Positions 2,319 through 30,100 of a stretch of DNA of 64,000 nt are shown one piece after another. Origin of the DNA: Ophelia neglecta (lineage: Eukaryota); the NCBI GenBank assembly GCA_965285935.1, contig OZ260663.1, positions 111,414,001-111,478,000 of the forward strand, in the 5' to 3' direction. The notes beneath the pieces were generated by a model. It searched no databases. It was not told the DNA's origin and worked only from the letters and a program-made list of their open reading frames with translations. Within the stretch, counting starts at the first letter, position 1. Each line of letters begins with the position of its first letter. Made by a program: the position numbers and the translations under genes.

Positions 2319-2711
2319 ATGCCAAGAATAGTTAATATTAACATAAATGGATTGAATAGAAAACTAAAGAGGCAAGTGTTGTTTAACAAATTGAAACAGC
2401 TGAAAGCAGATGTTGTTCTTCTACAGGAAACTCATCTAGGATCAGTGGATATTCTGACTCTGGAAGCTAGGTGGGCGGGACAAATTTATTGTGCTCCAGG
2501 CGCAGCACAAAGTAAGGGTGAACTGATATTATTAAGTCCAACATTTGTTGAATCATGTAGCAATATTAATGAAATTATAAATGAAAGTAGAATTTTGGGA
2601 GTGCGAGCAACTTATGATAACAAGTGTCACATTTTCCTTAATATTTATGCTCCATGTAAATCACATGACAAATTATTTTTTTTAGAAGGTTAAATTTAAT
2701 TATTAAGGATA
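2319..2711 (+). pseudogene. Tx1/L1 ORF2, 5' segment (APE endonuclease N-half)
   Basis: NINGL...DVVLLQETH...NIYAP motifs. An apparent 1-bp frameshift lies near 2691; the frame resumes after the LTR insertion as IKDIQDNHPDCYLILGGDFN. Confidence 0.92.
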
Positions 2712-3102
2712 TGAAGTAGTTCTAGGTTCTTTTATGCAGTGAAAATACAATAGTAATAAATAGCAACTTACTATTAGTTTCTGCCGATATGTGTCAGAAA
2801 TGGCCTCTATTAAGGGGCCTCGATACGTCAGAAGCCCTGTTTGCTGAGGGGTCCTGACAGGTCCGTATTCAATGAGATGTCCAACCAATCTGCCGACTGC
2901 GTTACTAGATCCCCTCGATCCGGTGGTTGGTGGCGTCCTCTAGTGGAAAGTCTATGAACTGACTTCCCGAGACCAGTCTCTTGGCGGTAGTTTACTCTCA
3001 ATTTCATCCGAGACCGGAAGTAGAAGATAATCCGAAGGGAGGTGTGCAAAGGCCATGTGCGAGCCAGAAGTGTAAGCACATAAAAGATAGGCGCCTACAT
3101 CA
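2712..3102 (-). repeat. 3' LTR (391 bp)
   Basis: Direct repeat of 5720..6110 with no mismatch seen by eye. In element orientation the termini are TGATGTAG...CTACTTCA (7/8 inverted repeat). Confidence 0.96.
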
Positions 3103-3115
3103 CTCTTCCCCACTT
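3103..3115 (-). promoter_or_regulatory. Polypurine tract (plus-strand primer site)
   Basis: AAGTGGGGAAGAG on the minus strand directly abuts the 3' LTR. Confidence 0.85.
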
Positions 3116-3288
3116 AAAATTTTAGGAGAACGTCACCCAGAAAAGAATAGAGCAGTCGACTAGTAAGTAATCTACACTCAAAGAAATGCGACTCAGGATA
3201 TAGAGAGTTAACAATATTTTCAGTTACTCCAAACAGGTGTAAGAATTGAGCTTATGAGTGCCCAGACTTAATATATATATATATATAT

Positions 3289-3446
3289 CAGTTTCATTCA
3301 GAAACTATTTATCACACTAGTGGTTACGTATGAACTTAAATATAACTCCACCAGTCATACCAGATATGTAACAGTTTCATTCAGAAACTATTTATCACAT
3401 TAGTAGTTTCGTATAAATTTACATATATAAAACCACCAGTCATACC
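3289..3446. repeat. Imperfect tandem duplication (~83-bp period) in the 3' non-coding region of the LTR element
   Basis: cagtttcattcagaaactatttatcaca...ccaccagtcatacc occurs at 3289 and 3372, preceded by a short (TA)n. Confidence 0.85.
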
Positions 3447-3469
3447 CTCCTTAATATTAATTACAGAAA

Positions 3470-4969
3470 TTAGGAAGTGCCCGGAACAACTTGATTGCCA
3501 GCAAAGTCTTTAACGGACTCTTTCATCAACATTTCTTGTTGTTGGGCAGGGGTGAGTAGGGAGAAAAGGGTCTGAAGACTTCTCCAGTGTGTCAGAAATT
3601 CGATTTTTCCCATCATAGAGAAGTCTTCAGGAGGGCAAGTATAGATAGTGACATCTTTCTTCATTGCCAACAATATGCATTCAAAAAGGTGATTTTCTTT
3701 GTCGGTAAAATTACAATTATGAGAATTCTCCCTCCACCATCGCTGATTAATCAATATTTTTGCCAACTTATTTAGAGGGTTGTCGCCAGAACACCACCAA
3801 TAGCCAGAATGATCCAGGTATGAGTAGGCCAATTCATTAGGGAGCACCTGAGCCAGTTCATGTAGCCAACCTAGAACCAGATTGCCTCGCAGTGCTTTGT
3901 CTACATCAGAAACATTAGTGTTGTGTTTCCAATTATAATGATATTTCTGAAACAGCGCACTGTTTCTGGAAGCCCTACCATATGGTGAACAATACCACGG
4001 AGTGTGATGTTTCTCAAAGTGTTGTCTAAGCTGTCTCACCATTATTTGACAGCTGGGACATTTTCGGAGAAGTTTTTTCTTTTCAGTGGAATTGTTCTGG
4101 CTCCCGTTTCCCCCACTATTATGGCCCTTCACCGGATATGGGTGATGTCTATTACTTCTGACATTACCAAGTCTGGATCTTATTGATGGTGTGGGTGCAG
4201 CTTGGGGGAGTTTGTTGAAATTCTTATCAGAATTTCGATTTGAACTCCCTGGCATGTTAGGGTTAGCCGGAAGTGTTAATGGGTTAGTAGGTGTATTGTC
4301 TCTAGTAGTCTCTTTGGTATTCGAAACCACTTTTTCACTATTGCTTACATTGGGTTCCGTCCCTTTCCTCGTGCTTATGTACTCTAATTTATTTTTCAGG
4401 TGTGCCTCCACTGTCCGTTTTACCGGAGCATCTACTTCGGGCAGAAGCATCAGTGGGTGGCTAAACTGGGGGTGCAGCACAGGAAACTTTTCCATAATCA
4501 CATGATTGAGGAGGAAGTCAATGTCGCCCGCTAAGGCTTCGCAATGGAAAATTTCGGGGACAATACAACTAAGGGACACATAAAAAGAAGAATGGCTAGG
4601 CTTCTCTCTTAACATCTTGGCTAAGTAGGTGGGATTCCAATAGGCCCTTGCTCTACCTATTTTTCTGAGCAATTGCGCTAGAGGGACGGGAATAAGTTTA
4701 GTAGTTACCATAGGGAAAACCAGTGCAGATGTTTCATCGCTATTTTCTACTACTATGGGTGCCCGTAGTGCAGTTTGGAGAGACACTTCAGCCGCAGTTT
4801 TAAAATGAAACAAATGGTGTTCGTGTCTCTCTTTAGGGTCTATTTTTTCCAAATAGACCAGTGCATAGAGTTTAAAGTCTTCACCTTTAAAAAAGGCTAC
4901 CACCGACTTTACTTGTGCTGGACTTAAAAGTTGGAATTGGATTACTACCATAGGCCTAGAGAGTTCCAT
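3470..4969 (-). CDS. Uncharacterised 499-aa protein of the LTR element: N-terminal globular domain, N/S/P/T-rich linker, basic patch, C2H2-like zinc finger and helical C-terminal domain
   Basis: Uninterrupted 1.5-kb ORF with an optimal Kozak context (ACC ATG G). CPSC-x9-H-x3-HH directly follows KKKLLRK. No signal peptide or transmembrane stretch is apparent. Confidence 0.8.
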   Translation of the reverse strand: MELSRPMVVIQFQLLSPAQVKSVVAFFKGEDFKLYALVYLEKIDPKERHEHHLFHFKTAAEVSLQTALRAPIVVENSDETSALVFPMVTTKLIPVPLAQLLRKIGRARAYWNPTYLAKMLREKPSHSSFYVSLSCIVPEIFHCEALAGDIDFLLNHVIMEKFPVLHPQFSHPLMLLPEVDAPVKRTVEAHLKNKLEYISTRKGTEPNVSNSEKVVSNTKETTRDNTPTNPLTLPANPNMPGSSNRNSDKNFNKLPQAAPTPSIRSRLGNVRSNRHHPYPVKGHNSGGNGSQNNSTEKKKLLRKCPSCQIMVRQLRQHFEKHHTPWYCSPYGRASRNSALFQKYHYNWKHNTNVSDVDKALRGNLVLGWLHELAQVLPNELAYSYLDHSGYWWCSGDNPLNKLAKILINQRWWRENSHNCNFTDKENHLFECILLAMKKDVTIYTCPPEDFSMMGKIEFLTHWRSLQTLFSLLTPAQQQEMLMKESVKDFAGNQVVPGTS

Positions 4970-5094
4970 GGTGTATACCTTAAAAGAAAGGATTTCAATA
5001 CTTCATTAATTTCTGTAATGTCATGTTTATCGTGAGATAATGCATTACCAGTATAGACAATCCTCTCGTTTATTACTTTTAACTTTACGGCCTC

Positions 5095-5178
5095 TTAAAG
5101 AGTTTCTTTCTTTGACCCAATTCCAGTTTATTCTTTTAGTTCCTCTACACTTGCATCATTAATATTTATTTGATCCAT
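5095..5178 (-). pseudogene. Relic helix-hairpin-helix (ComEA/HHH_3-like) peptide at the gag position
   Basis: Manual translation MDQININDASVEELKE*TGIGSKKETL* fits the ININxASxEELxxLPGIGxxKA HhH consensus, with TAA in place of the conserved Leu. Confidence 0.7.
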
Positions 5179-5705
5179 ATTGTACAAATGTCAATTTTCA
5201 AATAAACATGTTCTGAAGTGAAAAGGGAATTCTGTTTCTATTTCCAAAGTGTGAAATTTACAAGTAAATTTAGAAGTAATTTGTACTAAACTGCACAAAT
5301 GTTCAACAAAAGCTGCATAAATTTCTAAGCTAGAAGTCAGTAGGCTAAACTAAGGTAGGGCCGAACTGCCTTAAACATGTACTGACATATAAACAAAGGA
5401 AACACACGCCTAAGCTAACTAGGAGTGTTGGCACACCTTGCCTGCTGACACCACAACAATGGAATGTTTGTTTAAGGGTTAGCAAGCCTGCCTGCCAGTT
5501 ATATAACAGCAGTTTTCTGCAGATGCAAAGTCCTGCTAATATTCAAAATTATCTAGATGAACACAAATAAAGATGCCCTATCTAGACTTAATTCACGTAG
5601 GAGGATTGTCTCATTAAAGCTCCTAAATGAAAATAGCAAGTGTCAGAAAACCTGCAAGTTGCGTTATTCACCTGTATTTTTCACTACAATATTTTGAAAA
5701 AACCG

Positions 5706-5717
5706 CTTCTGACACCA
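5706..5717 (-). promoter_or_regulatory. Primer-binding site complementary to the tRNA-Leu 3' end
   Basis: TGGTGTCAGAAG(CGG) lies 2 nt inside the 5' LTR. Metazoan tRNA-Leu(CAA) ends ...CCCACUUCUGACACCA. Confidence 0.85.
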
Positions 5718-5719
5718 GT

Positions 5720-6110
5720 TGAAGTAGTTCTAGGTTCTTTTATGCAGTGAAAATACAATAGTAATAAATAGCAACTTACTATTAGTTTCTGCCGATATGT
5801 GTCAGAAATGGCCTCTATTAAGGGGCCTCGATACGTCAGAAGCCCTGTTTGCTGAGGGGTCCTGACAGGTCCGTATTCAATGAGATGTCCAACCAATCTG
5901 CCGACTGCGTTACTAGATCCCCTCGATCCGGTGGTTGGTGGCGTCCTCTAGTGGAAAGTCTATGAACTGACTTCCCGAGACCAGTCTCTTGGCGGTAGTT
6001 TACTCTCAATTTCATCCGAGACCGGAAGTAGAAGATAATCCGAAGGGAGGTGTGCAAAGGCCATGTGCGAGCCAGAAGTGTAAGCACATAAAAGATAGGC
6101 GCCTACATCA
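5720..6110 (-). repeat. 5' LTR (391 bp)
   Basis: Direct repeat of 2712..3102, followed on the plus strand by the target duplication GATA. Confidence 0.96.
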
Positions 6111-9100
6111 GATATACAAGATAATCACCCAGACTGTTATTTAATATTAGGTGGCGACTTTAATTGTACTATTCAACCTGGTCTCGATATTATCGCAGGA
6201 AAACCACATCCAACCAATGAGGTTTCTGCTTTCAAGTGCATTTTAAATACCCTACACGATGCTTATAGAATATTCCACCCAGAAAGGAAAGACTTTACCT
6301 GGAAACATCTATCTAATAATATAATTAGGAGACTTGATTACATATTTGCCTGTGGTTTGGCCATGGAGTTGATTACCACCATAGATATTATAGATTTCCC
6401 CCAAACTGACCATAGGGGGATATATGTAACCTATTCAGAAAGTAAGGAAATCAGGGGCAAATCTTATTGGAAGTTTAATAACAGTCTTCTTAAAGACATA
6501 CAGCATGTTAATTCAATCTATAACCTTATTGAGTAATTATTAAACACACATGAACATTGGCCACCAGAAATGCAGCTGGAGACGATAAAAACGAAGGTTA
6601 GGGAATATACCATGAAACACAGCCAAGAGAGAGCTTCTAAAATGAAATCAGAAGAAAAAATACTGAAATTACAACTAGAAAAAATTAACTTAGAATTAGT
6701 AAATAACCCTAATGATAATCTATTAAATACAAAGCTAAGAGATATTAAGTTTAAAATTTAATTATTTGAAATTGAAAGGGCAAGGGGGGCACAACTAAGG
6801 TCAAAAAACAAATGGGTAACAGACGGCGAGAAAAACACCAAATATTTTCTGGGTTTAGAGAAATCTAAGGGTAAAAATAACAATATTAACCATCTAAATA
6901 CAGATAGCGGGGATATTAGGGGAACTGATCCAATCCTAGTTGAAATTGAGGCATTCTATAAACAGTTATATAAAAGAGAGGATAATTACAATAAAAGAGA
7001 TTTTGAAAACTTAATAAAAGATATTGAATTTAACACGCTTACTAATGATGAGCGGAATTCTTGTGAAGGTCTGTTAACCCTCTCTGATTGTACTATTGCA
7101 TTAAAGGGAATGAAAAATGACTCAAGCCCTGGAATTGATGGATTAACATCGGCCTGGTATAAAATGTTTTGGCCAAAAATAGGACAAATAGTGACCAATT
7201 CCATAAATAATGGTTAAAAGATCGGTTTTCTAAGCCCCTCGCAGAGGCTTAGTATAATTAACCTTCATCATAAGGGAAAGGACCTGCCACGGGAAAAACT
7301 TAACAATTGGAGGCCAATAGCGTTATAAACAACCGATTATAAAATAGCTGCAAAAGCCCTAGCTAATAGGCTTACCAAAGTTATAAAAAACTGGTTTCTT
7401 CTAAACAAACTGGATTCATCAAGGGAAGAAGTTCCGCGGAAATAATTAGGGCGATAGACGATATTTTAGAATATTTAGACCAAAAGAATTTGCATGGAAT
7501 CTTAATTGCAATAGATTTTAGAAAAGCATTTGATTCAATAAATAAAAGATACATGATTGACTGTTTAGAAAAAATTAACTTTGGCCCTATGTTTGTTAGA
7601 TGGGTGGAGACACCGAACAGCTTTCTACAAGCTAGAGTTGTTAATAATGGTTGATTTACAAATACTTTCACGCTAGAGCGGGGGTATAAGACATGGATGC
7701 CCCTTATCCCCCATGTTGTTTATCCTGGCACTTGAATTCTTCTCAATTAAATTAGATAATGAAAACTCAATTACGGGTATATTTGTACCGGGCTGTGATA
7801 AGCCCATTAAACTGTTGCAGTTTGCAGATGATAGTACTGGCTTGCTCAATGATGAAGAATCTGTTATACTCTTTTTGCAACTACTGCACAAATTTGATAT
7901 TATATCTGGATTACAACTTAATAAGTCAAAGACAGAAGCCATGTGGCTTGGATGTTGGAAATACCGAAGGAAGCAAATAGAGCAACTAAAATGGAAACTG
8001 TTCCCTGAAAACAAAGTTACCATTTTGGGAATAACCGTGTGTTCAAATAAAACAGCTAGTCATTGTGATGAAAACTGGGAACGGCATACTGCAATATGTG
8101 AAAATGTTATCAGGGCCTGGTCCAAAAGATATTTGTCAATATTTGGTAAAATTGTAATAATTAAAAATTTTCTTTCGTCACAATTTGCATACACTCTTCG
8201 ATGTATTAGATACCCAGTACATGTATTAAATAAGTTGAATGGGATGTTTTTTAAATTTCTGTGGTCTGATAAAGATCCAGAAAGGAATCGGGTAACAGAC
8301 CGTGTTAAACGAGAATTTGTTTCTCAGCCAATCCCACAAGGCGGTCTTGGCATGCCTGATTTACACATTATGCAGAAACAACTCCATTTTAAATGGATCT
8401 CCAAATTAATAGAAGATAGCAATGAAATGTGGAAATTCCTTCCCCGTACTTATTAGGCATCATATGGGAGAAATATGGATGTATTTAATAGTAATATTAA
8501 ATCAGACGGATTTAGGCAAATAGAAACATCGAAACTCGAATTGGAATTTTGGAAATATTTTCTTTTTGATTGGCTGGACATAAATTCTCTGGATACAGGC
8601 AGAGTCACCAGTGTTATATTCAACAATAGGGATATCACGTATCGTGGTGCTCCTATCTTTGTACCTAGATGGTTGCAACATGGTTTGGTGTATGTCCAAG
8701 ATATCTTGCTTGATGGAGTACTGAACTATGAAAAAATATTCAATATATTAGGTGACAATGCGAGAACTCGATGGGAGCTAAATATTGTTCGAAATGCATT
8801 ATCTATTAAAAATATGGATAAAATAAGTGGAGTGCTAACACGTCGGGATATTATATTTAGGGGCTCACCCCTGTTAACATATACATCGAAAATGTTAAAA
8901 ACTGGAATTATGAAATTACTTCGTAGAAATGAAAATATAATATTTTCTACATATTTATATGAAAGATATGGTAATATCTGTACAACTGAAGAAGTCTTTC
9001 AAATGGCAGATATATATACACGTAGTGAAGCCAAAATTGCTAGTCTCCAATGGAAGATACTACATAACATCTACCCAGTAGGAGCATATCTGAAAAAATT

Positions 9101-9428
9101 AAGAATTCATGAGAATGATAAATGTAAATACTGCAATGAGGTGGACTCAGTAGAACATTTCTTTTTTCAATGTCACACAATATATAATCTGTGGCAACAT
9201 GTAGAAGTGGACATTATGATAAAAGCCGAAAAACGTGTAAAACTATCAGTAGCAGAAATAATTTTCGGTATAAATCGCGACGTCTGTCCATCACTCAAAA
9301 TATATAAATATGTCAATTTACTAATTTTATTAGGCAAACTTTGTGTGACAAAATTCAAATACGGAAAATCTTGTAATTTATTACAAATATATGAACACGA
9401 TAGGTGTGTACGCAATTGTTACTTATAA
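6111..9428 (+). pseudogene. Tx1/L1 ORF2, 3' segment (endonuclease C-half, reverse transcriptase, C-terminal zinc-binding domain), multiple stops and frameshifts
   Basis: GGDFN, RRLDYIF, TDHRG, NNWRPI, DFRKAFDS, GCPLSPMLF, QFADD and CKYCNEVDSVEHFFFQC are spread over broken ORFs (6570..6761, 7713..8456, 8475..9428). Confidence 0.93.
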
Positions 9429-16693: not shown

Positions 16694-16827
16694 ATGGGAA
16701 TTAATGAAAGAGAGTATTTAACAAGAAAATATTAATATCAACCAACATTAAACCACATTGATGGGAATTAATGAAAGAGAGTATTAAACAAGAAAATATT
16801 AATATTAACTAATATTAAACATCATTG
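16694..16827. repeat. 67-bp tandem duplication spanning the ORF2 stop and proximal 3'UTR
   Basis: atgggaattaatgaaagagagtatt(t/a)aacaagaaaatattaatat... occurs at 16694 and 16761. Confidence 0.85.
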
Positions 16828-19800
16828 ATGTCCAACGTATTTTGGAGGTTACATGTTTGACAAACATAACAGTTTACAACAGTACAGTCAACAGAATAGC
16901 AGTTTATTAAGAAAGACTTTATATATTTTGCAAAACCATGTAAGCTATGTGTGTATACCATGTCCTTAATATGATCTGGTATTTCATTTAAAATATGAAT
17001 AATCTTAAATCTGATACATTTTTTGGCAAACTCGTGTTTTACCAGACCTTGGTAATATCTGGATTTATTTCTAGTATCATACGAGTGAATTTCTGATACA
17101 TGCTGTATATTGAACTGTGTGAAGTAATATGGAATACTATTATTCACATATTTGAAATAGAATTTCAAGGCACAAAGTTTATAAATATCCTCTGATTTTA
17201 GTAGATTCAATCGTTTAAAGATTGGTAAGGTGTGTGATATGTAAGAGCTGTTTGTAATGATGCGGACTACTTTTTTCTGCAATTTATCTATTCTAGTAGT
17301 TTCTAAACCCCAAGCAAGAATACAATAATTCAAATGTGGCAAAATAAGAGTGTTGTAAATAGTTCTCAAAACTTCCCGAGGAAGAATGAGCTTTATTCTA
17401 TTAAGAACTCCAATAGTTTTAGAAATCTTATTTGATATTTTATTCAAATGATCATTCCAATTCATGTATTTGTTCAAATTTAGACCAAGAAAATTGAAAT
17501 CATCCACACACTCTACTTCCACCGCATCCATAAATAGTCTAGGAATCATTATCCTCTTTCCCGGCATGTGAGAAATCATAAATTTGGTTTTAGCTGTGTT
17601 TAAGGATAATTTGTTCAGCCTGAGCCATTCACTAATTTTTGCCAATTCAGAATTTATAATGTCACCGACGGCAAGAGATAAGTCCAAGTGCTTGAACATA
17701 CTAAGTGTGCTGGATAACGTAGTGTCATCTGCATATATGATAGTTTGAAATAAGTTACTGACAGTACTGATGTCATTCATGTAAATAATAAAGAGTAGAG
17801 GACCCATAATTGATCCTTGTGGGACGCCTGTAGCAATAGAGGCCGTATCAGAGCGAGTGTTATTTATGTGGACAAGCTGTTTACGGTCATTTAAATAGCT
17901 TCTAAGAAGATCCAAAGAAGAGCCTGAAATACCATAATAGTTTAATTTATAAAGTAAGATATCGTGATTTAACGTGTCAAACGCTTTAGATAGATCCATA
18001 AAAATATTAAGCGGAGTTTCATCCTTATCTAACTCATTTACTATTCTATCAATCAATTCTAAAGCAGCAAACTCCGTAGAGTGCTGTTTTCTGAATCCAT
18101 ATTGACTGTAGCAAAACAATTTATAATGCTCAAAGTATTCATGTAATTGGTCGGCAATGATTCTTTCAAATATCTTGGATACAGTTGGAAGGACAGATAT
18201 GGGACGATAATTCTCAAATAAAGTGCTGTCGCCTTTCTTAAAAATCGGTGTAACTTTCGCAATTTTAAGTTTATTTGGAAATATTCCTGAAGCAAAAGAT
18301 TGATTAATTACTTTAGTTAAAGGGCAAACAAGTTCATGTTTAATTTGTTTCAATAATATAGAGGACAACCCGTCCAAACCGCAACTACTTTTTGATTTCA
18401 TTTTGTCTATCTGAGAAGAAACAGTCAATTCTGACACTGGCTTAAATATAAATGTATTTGGAGAAGGGGTTTTAAGGTAATAGTGGAGAGATTTGTTAGA
18501 GTTATTTGTTAATTTTGATGCTAAACTAGGACCGATATTGATGAAGTATTTATTAAATTCATTGGCGACAACCTGTGGGTCAGAAACTAGTAGACCATTT
18601 ATGTTAAATTTATCAGGGTATGATTTAGTTACCCTCTGCCTATTTAAGATTTCATTTATTGTTGACCATGTGTTTTTCATATCGCCTTTGAATTTTGTGA
18701 AGCGCGAATTATAGTAGTTACGTTTAGCCAATCTAATATTGCGGTTAAGAATTGTATTGTATGTATCTAGGTTTGTTTTAAGTGTGCTATATTGTGGTGT
18801 ATTCTGTAATGTTGATTTCACCCTTTTATACAGCTTATCTCTAAATGTAATAGATCTAATGAGCCCCTGAGTAATCCATTTTGATTTTTTATGCCTGTGC
18901 TTGTTATATTTAACCCACTTTGGTTGCAAATGTTTATTGTATGAATCTGTGATAATTTTATCAATGACATTATAATTAGAATTAGGGTCAGCAGATTCGT
19001 TTGGATCAATATTTGCCATTATTTGTTGGTTAACAATTTCAGTTTTAAAGCGTTCAATAGATTGAGGGTTTTGTTGACTTATCTCAATGTAAGCAGGGGA
19101 AATTTTGCGAGTGTGTATCATATTATTAATAGCAATATAATACGGATGATGATCTGATATTTGACTTAATAAAATACCACAAGTCGAATCGTACATTCTA
19201 GTACTCAGTTTACAGATAAAATTGTCTATTAATGTTGCACTGCATTTAGAGAATCTAGTTGGAAGTGTAATTTTAGGATAAAAACTGTGAGAGGTAAGAT
19301 TGTCGAAATATTCAGCAAATACAGGTTTTTCATTTATCTTTAATAAATCAATATTGTAATCTCCAGCAAGTAGGGCTTCGCAATTAGTTTTCTCTAAACT
19401 CAGAAGTACACCGCCAAATTCTTCAATGAACAATCTATAATTATCAAGCAGATCTCTAGGTGGTCTGTATATATTGCCTATCACAACCTTTCTTTGAATA
19501 CAGGGTCCGGTTACCTCTATGAATTGACCCTCCCAGACTGTTGAGGACTTACATAAATCCAGTACATTATAATCATAACATTCCTTCAGATATATAAGAA
19601 GGCCACCATGAGCTGAGCACATTTTACTTTGTGATATCATCTTATAGCCATCTAGTTGCAACAGTGACAAATCTGAGCCTTCAGAGAGCCAGGTTTCCTG
19701 GAAGCAGATAGCACTAAATGAGGTATTACAGGTATTTAGTTCTTCAAGAAAAATCTGGATCTGGTCGAATTTTGCATTTATACTCTGACAATTCATGCTA

Positions 19801-19997
19801 AGTACACTAAAGGCACTATGTTTATTAGCTAATATACTAGAAAGTTCATCTGTTTCGTGATATGGAGATAGCTGAATTATATCTGCCTCGTTATCAGCTG
19901 ACAATTCGTCACTAGAGCAGCCAGGGTTCAATATATAATTTAAGGAGTTATTATTTAAACCTCCAAATGTCTTCAAAAATGTATTGGCACTATCCAC
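16815..19997 (-). CDS. LINE ORF2: APE endonuclease + reverse transcriptase
   Basis: MNCQS, FQETWL, GNIYRPP, AGDYN, IDN and SDH (endonuclease); NYRPIS, QYGFR, DLSKAFD, GVPQGSIMGP and YADD (RT); C-terminal CTVVNCYVC. Starts at GTG. Confidence 0.96.
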   Translation of the reverse strand: MDSANTFLKTFGGLNNNSLNYILNPGCSSDELSADNEADIIQLSPYHETDELSSILANKHSAFSVLSMNCQSINAKFDQIQIFLEELNTCNTSFSAICFQETWLSEGSDLSLLQLDGYKMISQSKMCSAHGGLLIYLKECYDYNVLDLCKSSTVWEGQFIEVTGPCIQRKVVIGNIYRPPRDLLDNYRLFIEEFGGVLLSLEKTNCEALLAGDYNIDLLKINEKPVFAEYFDNLTSHSFYPKITLPTRFSKCSATLIDNFICKLSTRMYDSTCGILLSQISDHHPYYIAINNMIHTRKISPAYIEISQQNPQSIERFKTEIVNQQIMANIDPNESADPNSNYNVIDKIITDSYNKHLQPKWVKYNKHRHKKSKWITQGLIRSITFRDKLYKRVKSTLQNTPQYSTLKTNLDTYNTILNRNIRLAKRNYYNSRFTKFKGDMKNTWSTINEILNRQRVTKSYPDKFNINGLLVSDPQVVANEFNKYFINIGPSLASKLTNNSNKSLHYYLKTPSPNTFIFKPVSELTVSSQIDKMKSKSSCGLDGLSSILLKQIKHELVCPLTKVINQSFASGIFPNKLKIAKVTPIFKKGDSTLFENYRPISVLPTVSKIFERIIADQLHEYFEHYKLFCYSQYGFRKQHSTEFAALELIDRIVNELDKDETPLNIFMDLSKAFDTLNHDILLYKLNYYGISGSSLDLLRSYLNDRKQLVHINNTRSDTASIATGVPQGSIMGPLLFIIYMNDISTVSNLFQTIIYADDTTLSSTLSMFKHLDLSLAVGDIINSELAKISEWLRLNKLSLNTAKTKFMISHMPGKRIMIPRLFMDAVEVECVDDFNFLGLNLNKYMNWNDHLNKISNKISKTIGVLNRIKLILPREVLRTIYNTLILPHLNYCILAWGLETTRIDKLQKKVVRIITNSSYISHTLPIFKRLNLLKSEDIYKLCALKFYFKYVNNSIPYYFTQFNIQHVSEIHSYDTRNKSRYYQGLVKHEFAKKCIRFKIIHILNEIPDHIKDMVYTHSLHGFAKYIKSFLINCYSVDCTVVNCYVCQTCNLQNTLDINDV

Positions 19998-20262
19998 AGT
20001 ATGATGGAGATGTGAAAAGAATAAAATTTGCAGTTGCCGTCATATAATTAACATGCCCGTCCAAAAACAACCAGGTGCCAAAACAAAATAGAATAAATAG
20101 AAAATATACTGGATCTGAATATCCCAGAGAAAAACACATTACTATACAAATGGTAGGACATCTAATCATGTCCCACGGTGTGCACATGCCATCATTAGCC
20201 ATTGACACACTCTTCAGCATTGAAAGATGGAATAACAGGTGTGGTAAATGAGGATTAGACAT
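19990..20262 (-). CDS. Candidate small hydrophobic upstream ORF whose stop overlaps the ORF2 start
   Basis: 90 aa with an ATG start and a hydrophobic stretch (VYFLFILFCFGTWLFL). It ends ...CG* in TGTGGATAG, exactly as ORF 156..368 does in the related element. Confidence 0.35.
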   Translation of the reverse strand: MSNPHLPHLLFHLSMLKSVSMANDGMCTPWDMIRCPTICIVMCFSLGYSDPVYFLFILFCFGTWLFLDGHVNYMTATANFILFTSPSYCG

Positions 20263-20574
20263 TTAGGAACGCAAGTAGTACAAAAACAACGTATTTAGGA
20301 GTGTCTGTGCATTGGAGTCATGCAGAAAGATGCCTGACAAGCGTGTATACCAAGTGGACAGAGTAATATAGTGAGTCAGAGGCATAAATGATTCAATAGT
20401 CCACCAGGCCCATAGTGGTACAGGGGTCAAATAAAGTAGATCATAAAGGCGTATACATGTACATTTTCACCAGACCCCATCAAGTACCCACCGACATCAG
20501 GTAAGTCAGCAGAGTTAACTGTGAACAGTCATGTAATGTTAGGCCCAGTGTACACATTCACCCGGCATACCTGA

Positions 20575-20692
20575 GACAATATTTAAAGGTCAACCGCGGG
20601 GTCCTACAGATACAGAACAATGGTGTGTTTAAGACAATATTTAATGGTCAACCGCGGGGGTCAAAAAGAACAAAAAGGTGTGTTTAAGACAA
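20575..20692. repeat. ~58-bp imperfect tandem duplication just downstream of the ORF1 stop
   Basis: gacaatatttaa(a/t)ggtcaaccgcgggg...ggtgtgtttaa occurs at 20575 and 20633. Confidence 0.8.
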
Positions 20693-21448
20693 ACACTTAT
20701 CTAGTTCCTCCTCAGTTAACCTGTATGTCTTTAGTGGCCCAGTGCCCGGCGAATCCCTATATCTCAGTATCCTAGGAATAGTGAAGGGTATGAACGCGAT
20801 CCTGCCATTTTTTCGGATTTCCTTCATTTTAATCCTCAGGAGATCCTCTTCTTTTCTAGTTACTGCGTCAATGTCATCCGTAAAAAATAGGCCGGAATCC
20901 TTAAGAGCTTTATGAGCTCGTCTAAGAATGTTATCCCTGTCTGCCCAGTTGAGAAGTTTAGCGTGAATCATACGGGGTCTATCTTTACTTGGGTCAGGTT
21001 TAGATGGAGTCCTGTGTACCCGTTCAATGATGACATCTTTTAAGTTTAGTTTTTCCTCTAGTATGGTCTTAATATCAGCTTTAAGATGGTCGCTTGTTTC
21101 CTCGTGTCTCTCTGGCAGACCATGTAAGACAATGTTATTGCGCCTGCCTCGATTACTTAGGTCCACGATTTTCTTTTTCATTTCACGGACTTCAGTCTTA
21201 GGTACCATATCCCTCTTTAGAGAGTCTATCTCATGTTCCTTTTCAAATAGAGTTTCCTCTAAGTTTGCCAGCCCCCTCTCCAGATCAGTAATTCGAGAAT
21301 TGAAGTCCTTACAGTCACTTTCAATATCCCGCATACGTGTTTCCTGAGTGTCTAGCTTTTCCTCAATGGAAGTGACCTTTGCAAGGATCAGTGCCAGCGT
21401 TTGTTCCTGGGAGTTACCCCCCTGAGCCTGAGCCTGAGACAATGACAT
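20684..21448 (-). CDS. LINE ORF1 protein (coiled coil + L1-ORF1p/Transposase_22-like RNA-binding region)
   Basis: Heptad-rich N-half, then NRGRRNNIVLHGLPE, IERVHR, RPRMIHAKL and FFTDD. Intact 254 aa upstream of the EN-RT ORF2. Confidence 0.92.
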   Translation of the reverse strand: MSLSQAQAQGGNSQEQTLALILAKVTSIEEKLDTQETRMRDIESDCKDFNSRITDLERGLANLEETLFEKEHEIDSLKRDMVPKTEVREMKKKIVDLSNRGRRNNIVLHGLPERHEETSDHLKADIKTILEEKLNLKDVIIERVHRTPSKPDPSKDRPRMIHAKLLNWADRDNILRRAHKALKDSGLFFTDDIDAVTRKEEDLLRIKMKEIRKNGRIAFIPFTIPRILRYRDSPGTGPLKTYRLTEEELDKCLS

Positions 21449-25665: not shown

Positions 25666-25934
25666 AAAAAGCTATGACGATCACAAGCAAGTCACCCTTT
25701 TCTGGATAAATAAAGATGGACGCTTAAGCGAACTTGAATGTTTAGTTTGCAGTTGGAGATTGCAACTATCCCCGCGTATGCCGTTATGTACAAATTGTAA
25801 GGCGATAGTCTTAACCTTAATGCCGTAGTTTATACATGGATTGATAGATTGTGTAGTTTGTAGTGTATAAATTTTAATTCTTATGTCATAACATTTTATT
25901 AAAAGGAACAAGAAATGATTTACAAATATCAATA

Positions 25935-26012
25935 CGAGCCATATAACTAATATACGCCATGTCACTAATATACGCTGTATCAATCGCCATGTCACTAATA
26001 TACGCCTTATCA
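25935..26012. repeat. Short ~18-bp degenerate tandem repeat
   Basis: cgccatgtcactaatata is repeated 3-4 times with variants. Confidence 0.7.
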
Positions 26013-26221
26013 CTGACATTGGTAGTATCAGTCCACACATTTACTAGCTGTAAGGAAATGCAGGAACAAGCAATGTTCCATGTGTACCATTGTTTGGATC
26101 ATATTGAAGGGTCGCATAGATCTTTGCGGCCAAAAGGAAATCTGCGTGAACCCCATTATCACGATATGTCAATGCCAATAAAACACAACTTATATATAAC
26201 TCAACGTGTAGAACATAACTA

Positions 26222-27170
26222 GTGGTGGGTTATGGGTGTGTTATGTGTTATGGGAGGGCTATGGGGCGGGTTAAGAGTGTGTTATGTGGTATGGGAGGGC
26301 TATGGGGTGGGTAAGGGGTGTGTTATGGGAGGGCTATGGGGTGGGTTAGGGGTGTGATATGGGAGGGCTGTGGGGTGGGTTAGTGGTGTGTTATGGGAGG
26401 GCTATGGGGTGGGTTAGGGGTGTGTTATGTGGTATGGGAGGGCTATGGGGCGGGTTAGGGGTGTGTTATGGGAGGGATATGGGGTGGGTTAGGGGTGTGT
26501 TATGGGAGGGCAATGGGGTGGGTTAGGGATGTGTTATGGGAAGGCTATGGGGTGGGTTAGGGGTGTGTTATGGGAGGGCTATGGGGTGGGTTAGGGGTGT
26601 GGTATGGGAGGGCTATGGGGTGGGTTAGGGGTGTGTTATGGGAGGGCTATGGGGTGGGTTAGGGGTGTGTTATGGGAGGGCTGTGGGGTGGGTTAGTGGT
26701 GTGTTATGAGAGGGCTATGGGGTTGGTTAGGGGTGTGTTATGGGAGGGCTGTGGGGTGGGTTAGGGGTGTGTTATGGGAGGGCTGTGGGGTGGGTTAGGG
26801 GTGTGTTATGGGAGGGCTGTGGGGTGGGTTAGGGGTGTGTTATGGGAGGGCTATTGGGTGGGTTAGGGGTGTGTTATGGGAGGGATGTGGGGTGGGTTAG
26901 GGGTGTGTTATGGGAGGGCTATGGTGTGGGTAAAGGGTGTGTTATGGGAGGGCTATTGGGTGGGTTAGGGGTGTGTTATGGGAGGGCTGTGGGGTGGGTT
27001 AGGGGTATGTTATGGGAGGGCTATGGGGTGGGTTAGGGGTGTGTCATGTGAGAGCTATTGGGTGGGTTAGGTGTGTGTTATGGGAAGGCTATTGGGTGGG
27101 TTAGGGGTGTGTTATGGGAGGGCTGTGGGGTGGGTTAGGGGTGTGTTATGGGAGGGCTATGGGGTGGTTT
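26222..27170 (+). repeat. 34-bp G-rich minisatellite, about 27 copies
   Basis: Consensus TTATGGGAGGGCTATGGGGTGGGTTAGGGGTGTG, head to tail with no spacers. Confidence 0.97.
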
Positions 27171-30100
27171 AGACGACTAATATTCAGGGGCTATTGAGGT
27201 ATCACGGCAACCATTATCCACAAGCCCATCGCACAAAGAAGACAGCTGCTTAATTAAAAGAAATAATCTCTCGCTTTTGAGTGTAAGTGTTTCACTACGA
27301 ATTAATAATACATACAGGTAGAACTGAAATGCATTTTTCGTTTCCAACTTTTAACATGTTGGGCATACATGGCCTACCCAACCTTCCTTAATTATAAATA
27401 GAATATACCTCGCGGCATGAAAGGACCTTTTCGGATCCTGACTGCATATACTCAAGAACAATCATCTTATGCACTTCACAGCTGAGGTTGGTGTTACAGT
27501 GAAAAGTGGATGGTGGATGTTAAATGTACCTTGAGGAAAATTCCAGAATGCATGTTTGTTGATGCATTCTTTACCTGTGAGTATCTGTTATTTATAACTA
27601 GAGACCACAGTTATTTATTACAGAAGATGTTTGATGTATTTTTGGGGGGGAAAATCCTGAAAAAGCGGCTTCGCTTTTTTGACTGCAAGCAGCTTGTCAC
27701 GTCTCGCAAGAGATATCTCATCATAGTATATATGAAAGCAACCGTATCTGGCATTAATGAGGTAGTAATGATGCGCGAAATATCCTCGGCAGTGTACTGT
27801 CTTTTCTAGCAATAGTTGGCACAAAAGCGTTACAAAGGTTACCAAACGGTACGCTAATGATGGCTGTTTCTCCTTTCTACGTGACATCCTCTGCAAAACT
27901 GATATGGTATTGATCGGGGTTTCTGGTAGCCTTAAACCTAGACATTTTGTTCCACAATGATCTATTTAGGTTTTTTTTCGTCTGCATTAGCGATTCCCAT
28001 TGATGTTTAATTTTGCCCCATTTGTAGTATATAATGATGACACTAGCATGGCCTTTCTCATAAAGATATATTCAATTTCTGGATGTATCTTATGATCGAT
28101 TATAAAGCTGACAGATTGATGACAAAGAGAATGTGAAACATAATACGTCAAATTATGGTTGTTCTTAATAACTTAAGAAATCAATAAAAAATGATATGTA
28201 GTGCCCTTATAGCCGAACCTTTTGGATGGCCTGAATTGACAAAAGAAATCAAACATGCTTTACCTAATTATTTAAATATCATACGAGTACCTATGCGAAT
28301 TTTCACATGCCCATCACCTCATCAAAATATACAATTATCTGTTTATTCCTTATATCTAATGCCGTTTATTATGTAGCATCTGGAATGTGTGGGTGAACAA
28401 TATGCATATATTTATAACGCAAGTGCTTATAGTTATACTTATTACAGTCAAAATGAATACATAAGTGTGATACAAAATGTATCGGTTGCCGTTTCATATG
28501 CTTATAAAGAAACTACAGTATTGAATGCATTAAAGTTGCTTTCAATAAGACTTTTATGATATCAATAATATACAGACACGACAAGTAATTGATTTCTTCG
28601 TTGGAAATTATGCGTGAATGCTAAAGATATTTAAATTTCTACAGAGCAGTTGAACACAGCAGACTGCCTTCCATGTTACCAACAAACATGTCGTCCACAT
28701 GCACTATATGGTTAATCTGACCATAGCCAAGTTCTATCCCCTGGAGTGCTTAACACCAAAGTAGCCATAGAACGACAACTTTCATCTTTCAGAATCCAAT
28801 TTGTTGGTCGAATTAGTAAACTACACAGTCAGACAGTTCAATTACAAATTCACCTGCGACCACCTCGTGAGGAGAAGAGTTTGTACGGCACCAAATCTAA
28901 AATAGGACTGTTTACTTGCTTTGAAACACTGCTTCGAAGAAAAAACTAGAGCTGAATTTCATGGCTCTATTCACATGAATGTTTGCATCTTTATATATAG
29001 TTCTCATCAAAATGCATCACCAAAATCTGTAGTTCACGGACCAATTAATCCTCTTCACACTGTTCCAATATTATGCATATTTATCTTTATAAGAATGAAT
29101 ATACTTTGAATATGCACTGTGTTTGCCCTTTAAATATCTGTGTTTATTATTAAGCTATTTATTAAGTATTCAAACTGGCATGGTTTTTGCAATTTCAAAT
29201 AATAATAAAAATACTAACATATCCTTATTTGCACTGGAATTGACATATTGGAATGAGAAAGCAAAACTTAGGATTAAATTGTCATATTGGAAGCTGGCAT
29301 TAACCGCTTATACAGTCCCGCTTGCCGGAAACCGTGGTGATATCGCGATATGGGGTCGGAAAAATGTCGCCGTTATGCCGCAATAATATCCCGATAATGT
29401 CGGCATCCCTGGCGACATTATTGCGATATTTCCTCGACGTAGGTCGCAACATTATCGCGAGATCGCCCCAAGGCCAATACCTATTCACCTACTTACACCC
29501 GTGTTTATAAACGCGACAGAAAATATAGTTCCTTTCAATAACATCAATTTCTAGTATAAGAGCTTTAACGTAGTGACAAAGGAAAATGCTTTTCCGCCGC
29601 CGCCGCCGTGTATCCTAGTAGGCCATTCCACAAAAAACGGCCTCTTTCTTTTTAACAATTACTACTAACAACTCACCGAAACCATATAATATTGGGCTAC
29701 TGACATTTTATTGGGCTAATTAAATACGTGAAGAATGGAAGATATTGTATATATTCAAAGTAATTAAATTTATTTTTAACCGGAGCTCCAAAGAGCTTCA
29801 CAGAATGCTCCAAAACACTACGCGCATTGTAAGTGGCAAACAAGTCCAGCACGTTAGAATGGAAACTACTGGATTTGTGTAACGTAAGTACTTTGTTGTT
29901 GCGTTATATGATCTAACAACAGTTTTACTTAAAATAGATACTGCTGCACAAGAGATAAATATACATGTACTTGTAAAAGCACACTCAATGGTGCCGATTC
30001 TTCTTCACAGCCTTCATTGAATGTCATTTTTAAAGCGGCTAAAATGCTTATTATCGCATGTCTAATTATTGAGGCAATTAACTGTCTGATTTGAAGAATG

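Follow-up and report, generated by a model that had tools for sequence, protein, structure and literature searches.

The cargo gene of a short LTR retrotransposon in the genome of Ophelia neglecta is the third gene (ORF3) of a Ty3/Gypsy family, and it is probably expressed from an env-style message spliced to an acceptor at position 4979, just upstream of its start codon. Positions refer to the window, the whole 64,000-nucleotide stretch of contig OZ260663.1 that was analysed (assembly GCA_965285935.1, positions 111,414,001 to 111,478,000). Comparison between diverged families supports the acceptor well, and the choice of donor is divided between two candidate sites.

The window element is a 3,399-bp LTR retrotransposon on the minus strand (6110..2712) with the Ty3/Gypsy hallmarks of TG...CA LTRs, a primer-binding site (PBS), a polypurine tract and a short target duplication. 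The 5' LTR (5720..6110, minus strand) is 391 bp long and 100% identical to the 3' LTR (2712..3102, minus strand), and a 4-bp duplication, TATC, flanks the element (6114-6111 and 2711-2708). The PBS, TGGTGTCAGAAGCGG, which we take to be tRNA-Leu-like, lies at 5703..5717 on the minus strand with its core at 5717..5706, and the polypurine tract at 3103..3115 on the same strand. Two 83-bp tandem repeats (3281-3427) were also seen in the 3' untranslated region. An empty-site allele, the joint 2707-6111, was bridged by contigs from three of three DNA-type runs of one sample, so that the insertion is polymorphic and recent; together with the identical LTRs, this allele marks the insertion as very recent. 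The element interrupts the endonuclease-reverse transcriptase (RT) ORF of a plus-strand LINE (2319-2693 and 6111-9428), which gave a weak RVT_1 match and a zf-RVT match. Elsewhere in the window, pieces on the minus strand (823-1410 and 16815-21448) presumably represent ORF1 and ORF2 of other LINE-like elements, judging by their ORF sequence, and a G-rich tandem array with a 34-bp period (26180-27600) lies near a short cluster of 18-bp repeats (25920-26033).

A first-pass annotation of this DNA had proposed env-style splicing of the cargo ORF, and the motifs on which it relied are all present on the minus strand. The donor CAG/GTGAAT (5674..5666; the slash marks the end of the exon) has its GT at 5671-5670, 35 nt past the PBS core. 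The acceptor, CCTTTCTTTTAAG followed by G, ends at 4979 and leaves nine exonic nucleotides before an ATG at 4969 in the context ACC ATG G. It is an AAG preceded by a branch-like TTAAT (5009-5005) and a pyrimidine tract (whole feature 4979..5009). The predicted intron of this copy is 693 nt long, and the ORF that follows (3470..4969, minus strand) encodes 499 aa. Its assignment to the env slot also held, since the ORF follows gag, protease, RT, RNase H and integrase in two near-full-length sister copies, L053 and L220; it is thus ORF3 of the family. In L053, which is 9.4 kb long and broken in several places, ORF3 begins 76 nt past the pol stop, and L220 aligns with L053 end to end and has both splice sites. 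Pfam searches recovered the Ty3/Gypsy order protease-RT-RNase H-integrase in the pol of a related family (B), and L053 reads likewise; this order is absent from the window copy, which is a deletion derivative. The nearest RT-RNase H matches were mostly unnamed, at about 55-64% identity, the one named match coming from a gastropod.

The account given earlier of how gag and pol were lost required correction. A search of the genome with the element DNA, in which 40 of the 126 candidates were scored, gave at least 43 matches; 32 copy regions were examined initially and further loci were added later. The usual copy of the window family (family A) measures 5.1-5.25 kb and begins with LTR and leader, followed by a gag that is open for about 600-650 codons and by the 499-aa ORF. 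Instead of gradual erosion inside a 693-nt intron, a deletion of about 4.1 kb, shared throughout the family, took out the zinc knuckle of gag together with almost the whole of pol, and a second deletion of 1,757 nt (measured against copy L033) took most of gag from the window copy. The junction of this second deletion, 5135/5134, occurs once in the genome, in the window copy. The gag relic that had been described within the intron does exist. It consists of the first 15 codons of gag (5135..5178, minus strand, the beginning of a helix-hairpin-helix motif), to which the deletion has fused 21 nt from the 3' part of gag and the last integrase codons (5045..5134, minus strand; pol stop at 5047-5045). 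Nor is gag dead in the family, as it is open over at least 590 codons in 11 of 24 copies. An intron of 693 nt together with a dead gag is an accident peculiar to the window copy. Predicted introns measure 2,361-2,544 nt in 17 copies and range from 1,967 to 6,713 nt among the sisters. Among the 32 copies, 25 carry both splice sites, six lack the acceptor and one lacks the donor only. The helix-hairpin-helix at the start of Gag (PF00633/PF12836) scored above cut-off in both gags scanned; it lies at L031:1336-1446, and similar starts are visible in families B-I.

ORF3 is intact in 15 of the 24 copies that have its start, and the pN/pS among these 15 is 0.25, which indicates purifying selection. 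This ratio reflects selection on the protein in the history of the family, not necessarily in the pol-less copies. The main pol-less derivative retains a gag without zinc knuckle and the whole of ORF3. By contrast, a second pol-less lineage (L032, L035, L041, L044, L051 and L056) has a full gag with zinc knuckle and a protease-containing frame joined to the last 68 codons of ORF3, the acceptor being lost. As these six copies without acceptor and most of ORF3 sit at six separate loci, ORF3 is dispensable in cis. That the L032-type deletion is itself a splice product was considered and rejected, because its end does not fall at an AG. Three loci that were truncated or head-to-head and not delimited (L045, L055 and L060) were left out of the family counts, and L056 was left out of the donor alignment.

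The acceptor supports a spliced ORF3 message. Among close copies, TTTAAG and its pyrimidine tract are kept at 28 of 28 genomic ORF3 starts found by pattern, and a branch-like YTAAT word lies 27-28 nt upstream in 26 of them. Protein searches of the genome revealed many more families with ORF3, at 17-44% identity, always in the same slot wherever pol is present. The spacers between pol and ORF3 in these families are 73-353 nt long and, except for those of G and O, cannot be aligned with one another; even so, an acceptor-like site scoring at least 10 was found within 1-15 nt before the homologous ATG in 14 of 15 rows, that is, in 13 of 14 families once G and O are merged. Only 9.8% of 2,326 background ATGs have such a site, and shuffling gave a Fisher-combined p of 7e-11 over the 15 rows. 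These p-values are optimistic, because the scoring of acceptors, the limits of 1-15 nt and the windows for donors were chosen with the sequences already in view; the families also share ancestry. The effect is nevertheless large, and an acceptor just before the ORF3 ATG is well supported by this comparison. The exception, family N, is represented by a degenerate copy. In family I an ATG that is out of frame lies 4 nt past the acceptor, the start chosen for family P is uncertain, and family F (L106, without an ORF3 start) was left out of the test.

The acceptor of the window copy counts to some extent against a spliced message, since it is an AAG and is outscored by another site within the intron. 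Its score is matched by 2.0% of the 2,326 background ATG contexts and ranks joint second among the 47 AGs that the predicted intron contains, the highest belonging to a strong site at 5213 (TTCCCTTTTCACTTCAG, 5213..5229, minus strand), 34 nt upstream of the gag ATG. As most relatives have CAG (TTTCAG, TTGCAG or TTCCAG), the AAG of family A is a weak version of a conserved site. The distance from acceptor to ATG is 1, 3, 4, 6, 9, 11 or 15 nt, which covers all three phases with none constant, and the upstream exon is thus probably non-coding. Acceptor-like sites scoring 12-13 were also seen 34-244 nt before the gag ATG in six of eight families (A, E, G, H, I and D), a count made without controls. 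They hint that the gag message may have an intron in its 5' untranslated region.

The donor is less clear. Within the LTR and leader, CAG/GTGAAT is the best partner of the host U1 5' end among 50 GT sites (-8.4 kcal/mol). Donors as good make up 0.9% of background GT sites (0.5 per kb), however, so that about 0.5 would be expected in the 933 nt, and the post-PBS donor by itself is within chance. A good donor lies 19-49 nt after the LTR in five of nine families (A, C, H, I and J, reading CAG/GTGAAT, ACG/GTATGT, CAG/GTATCT, CAG/GTACGT and AAG/GTATGT), and the remaining four (B, D, E and G) have no good donor in the first 60 nt past it; this lack, like the chance level of the motif, weighs against the splice as originally drawn. 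Families L, M, N, O, P and Q were left out of the donor test because their 5' LTR was not delimited, the repeat of Q not being an LTR. Across the nine families, donor-like sites are enriched in the post-PBS window (combined p 0.004) and in the 3' part of the LTR (0.003), compared with 0.84-0.87 in three control windows. Within family A both donor candidates vary at three of nine positions, like their flanks (164 of 391 sites in the LTR, 38 of 131 in the leader), and a weakened CAG/GTTAAA occurs in three of 31 copies, one of which, L043, has an intact ORF3. Conservation within family A is thus uninformative for the donors.

The enrichment inside the LTR raises the main competing possibility, which is that the splice is real but starts mainly from ATA/GTAAGT (5774..5782, minus strand; exon end 5780, GT 5779-5778), 59 nt before the LTR end. 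Joining 5780/5779 to the same acceptor would remove an 801-nt intron and give a message without PBS, and CAG/GTGAAT would then serve otherwise or not at all. A GT(A/G)A donor-like site is found 59-133 nt before the LTR end in nine of nine families, at exactly -59 in both A and B, as against five of nine for the post-PBS site, and it offers the better donor wherever the latter is missing, in four families. Its GT is intact in 31 of 31 family A copies, and an initiator-like (G/T)CAGT word lies upstream in eight of the nine LTRs. On the other hand, its pairing with U1 in family A is weaker than that of the post-PBS site (-5.6 against -8.4 kcal/mol), it does not stand above shuffled sequences there (p 0.32), and the motif could have another function in the LTR. 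We regard this site as a possible main donor, though a doubtful one. The stronger U1 pairing slightly favours the post-PBS donor in family A; that CAG/GTGAAT is the donor used, with the exact junction 5672-4978, is our tentative assignment and falls somewhat short of an even chance. Both donors may be used. Env-style splicing as first proposed is likely with regard to its acceptor, and the choice of donor is divided between two candidates. Two further features of the LTRs were noted: a CC(A/C)CT(A/G)G word, which we assume to be CTCF-site-like, 170-235 nt before the LTR end in seven of nine (A, C, D, E, G, I and J), and the absence of a canonical AATAAA from all nine.

Spliced copies that had returned to the genome were also searched for. 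The predicted junction had no genome match with up to one mismatch, the acceptor in front of the 28 genomic ORF3 starts was unspliced in every case, with no spliced copy among the pattern matches, and 23 of the 58 matches to the 14-mer before the donor lay outside known copies and were unrelated chance matches. This lack is uninformative for the LTR donor, whose product has no PBS and could not be retro-copied, so that the absence fits it, and it is weak evidence regarding the post-PBS donor. The three DNA-type runs, from one sample, showed no joint at 4978/5672 among the three joints listed and, being DNA, are silent on expression.

The remaining explanations dispense with a leader donor. An internal promoter in the end of pol or in the spacer, either alone or combined with a short local intron to the same acceptor, would agree with the ATG that ORF3 possesses, in a good context, in every family, and local donor-like sites do occur in some spacers, such as AAG/GTGAGT about 40 nt before the acceptor of family H. 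The space for such a promoter is limited, however: the spacer measures merely 73-76 nt in families A, B and Q, and about 70 nt of pol are left before it in the main family A derivative, yet ORF3 is still intact in most of its copies. A promoter alone would also leave the conserved acceptor unexplained, and we consider this origin improbable. Still less probable is that no splicing takes place and that full-length RNA yields ORF3 through frameshift, readthrough, reinitiation or internal ribosome entry, the motifs being incidental. Some copies of family A do have an ORF3 frame that is open for 42-49 codons upstream of the ATG and overlaps the end of integrase, but this overlap is broken in nine of 28 copies by a 1-nt indel in the pyrimidine tract that shifts the upstream frame, several of these copies having an intact ORF3. 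In other families, stops in frame with ORF3 occur no more than about 20 codons from the ATG, and the frame from pol to ORF3 varies between families. The tract indels and the frame differences disfavour a fusion to pol, and the retention of the acceptor in 13 of 14 families speaks against unspliced expression altogether. Spliced-leader trans-splicing at this acceptor, which would free ORF3 from full-length RNA with no cis donor, agrees with the acceptor position, since trans-spliced genes also show an acceptor a few nucleotides before the start codon, but is the least probable reading of all, as the elements show an enrichment of donor-like sites at their 5' end and nothing in the analysis shows that the host trans-splices.

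According to the preferred model of an env-style message, a short and probably non-coding first exon from the LTR or leader would be spliced to the AAG acceptor at 4979. In the unspliced RNA sequence of the window copy, 11 AUGs precede that of ORF3 on the stretch from the LTR onwards, and there are none from 6014 to 5615; after splicing from either donor, the AUG at 4969 would be the first for any transcription start downstream of 6015. Neither the private deletion nor any other inside the intron would alter the spliced message. The same donor or donors may also be joined to the 5213 acceptor for a gag message.

The ORF3 protein comprises a folded N-terminal domain (residues about 1-155), a disordered variable linker, a C2H2 finger and a helical C-terminal domain. 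The finger residues are C304, C307, H317 and H322; the CxxC...H...H pattern is invariant in the alignment, and a basic stretch precedes it. No clear membrane span was found, the best 19-residue hydropathy being 1.53 in the ORF3 protein P0001 and 0.84-1.74 in seven aligned rows, and a furin site (R-x-K/R-R) is absent from all of these sequences. By these two features the protein is not Env-like. Searches of Pfam, the PDB and viral folds matched it neither to F-type or gB-type fusion proteins nor to anything else. We predict a zinc-finger accessory factor that is soluble and probably nuclear, and not an envelope.

Searches for relatives of this protein outside the genome were negative. P0001 found no homologue at E 0.001 (among proteins of lengths 274-874 only), a 13-row alignment found none at E 0.01, phmmer with P0001 gave no match in 1.84 billion representatives, and the family D protein had no match in metagenome contigs. 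Pfam returned nothing above cut-off for the four ORF3 proteins scanned, and the Atlas leads were low (0.76 for a zf-C2H2 cluster; 0.90 for an unnamed one with low recognition). The predicted model of P0001 has a mean pLDDT of 48.6, and that of the family D protein is confident (76.7). Foldseek at E 0.001 found no PDB match for either model and none in the viral set, which was searched with the P0001 model. A tandem-ACT-like fold of the N-terminal 90 residues (1zvp/1zhv) was considered and set aside, the best Z scores of the wide search, made with whole models and not single domains, being a weak 4.6 and 3.9. No paper describing the ORF3 family was found in a literature search whose scope did not extend to subscription papers, supplements and Repbase-type entries.

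Spliced expression of an ORF located after pol is standard among such elements. Simple retroviruses have gag, pol and env in this order between a 5' LTR and a 3' LTR, and a spliced env, as stated in the available part of PMC10309623. As in the env messages of MLV and RSV, so far as their descriptions at hand extend, the third gene here follows gag and pol and is predicted to have a spliced RNA of its own, whose donor lies close to the 5' end; unlike them, its cargo is no envelope glycoprotein, the window family is Ty3/Gypsy by domain order and the splice is predicted from sequence. In Drosophila errantiviruses the env junctions have been mapped experimentally, and Env-F splicing occurs in the ZAM, Beagle, springer and idefix subclades (PMC12992720, available sections). 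As is predicted here, the post-pol ORF3 exon is joined there to an upstream exon near the 5' end, but what that exon contributes is a peptide, an AU dinucleotide or a part of gag (same sections of PMC12992720), whereas the ORF3 ATG described here lies 1-15 nt past the acceptor in any phase and the first exon is predicted to be non-coding. Unlike errantivirus Env, moreover, ORF3 shows no furin site or clear membrane span and no signal peptide, as far as can be judged short of a dedicated predictor. A survey of env-carrying Ty3/Gypsy elements (PMC13524379) contains, in the accessible portion of its main text, no word beginning 'splic', and PMC8220671, in its accessible portion, provides clade background only.

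The closest precedent is CERV of Cer1 in Caenorhabditis elegans. In the available text of PMC10309623 this is a non-envelope orphan ORF of about 500 aa in the env position of a Ty3/Gypsy element, with a spliced RNA, a putative zinc finger and acceptors conserved across relatives. ORF3 resembles it, to the extent of that text, in being a non-envelope ORF in the env slot, in its size of about 500 aa, in its zinc finger and in an acceptor conserved across families. CERV is, however, a five-exon product that shares exons with gag and has a demonstrated role in RNA export (same text of PMC10309623), whereas no sequence link was found between it and ORF3, whose role is predicted only. From the C2H2 finger and the Cer1 precedent we infer, weakly, that ORF3 might be a nucleic-acid-binding regulator, an idea that is at best tentative. 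LTR retrotransposons of bdelloid rotifers also carry non-envelope ORF3s (GDSL, DEDDy), typically from spliced messages, and TelKA2n is a gag-truncated, pol-less non-autonomous family that retains ORF3 (PMC5408684, sections available). Within what those sections cover, they share with the present families a family-specific cargo in the env slot and a pol-less derivative that keeps ORF3, but their ORF3s are recognisable enzymes or fusion proteins, while that of the window has no Pfam, sequence or fold match.

With respect to genomic surroundings, one family B copy lies inside a U1 snRNA gene array (L096:9608-9771). As the other nine loci scanned had no Rfam match beside them, no general targeting of U1 arrays is shown.

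The expression mechanism is thus a known one and the cargo family is new. The splice itself, a textbook expression route, would be unsurprising; what stands out is the unusually clear comparative support for the ORF3 acceptor from sequence alone, the exact junctions being predicted, and the cargo, a selected and foldable protein family present in at least 14 diverged retrotransposon families and unmatched in the sequence and structure libraries searched. A broader picture, which we consider rather unlikely as a whole, is that these families, at least 14 in one genome, would form a broad Ty3/Gypsy lineage whose env slot holds an undescribed accessory protein, combining a C2H2 finger with an N-terminal fold that has no match. 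This protein would be expressed through a choice between LTR and post-PBS donors and between pre-gag and pre-ORF3 acceptors, and would act as a Rev/CERV-like or anti-silencing regulator that pol-less derivatives continue to supply. If ORF3 does regulate RNA export or silencing, it would represent another independent way in which LTR elements control their unspliced RNA.
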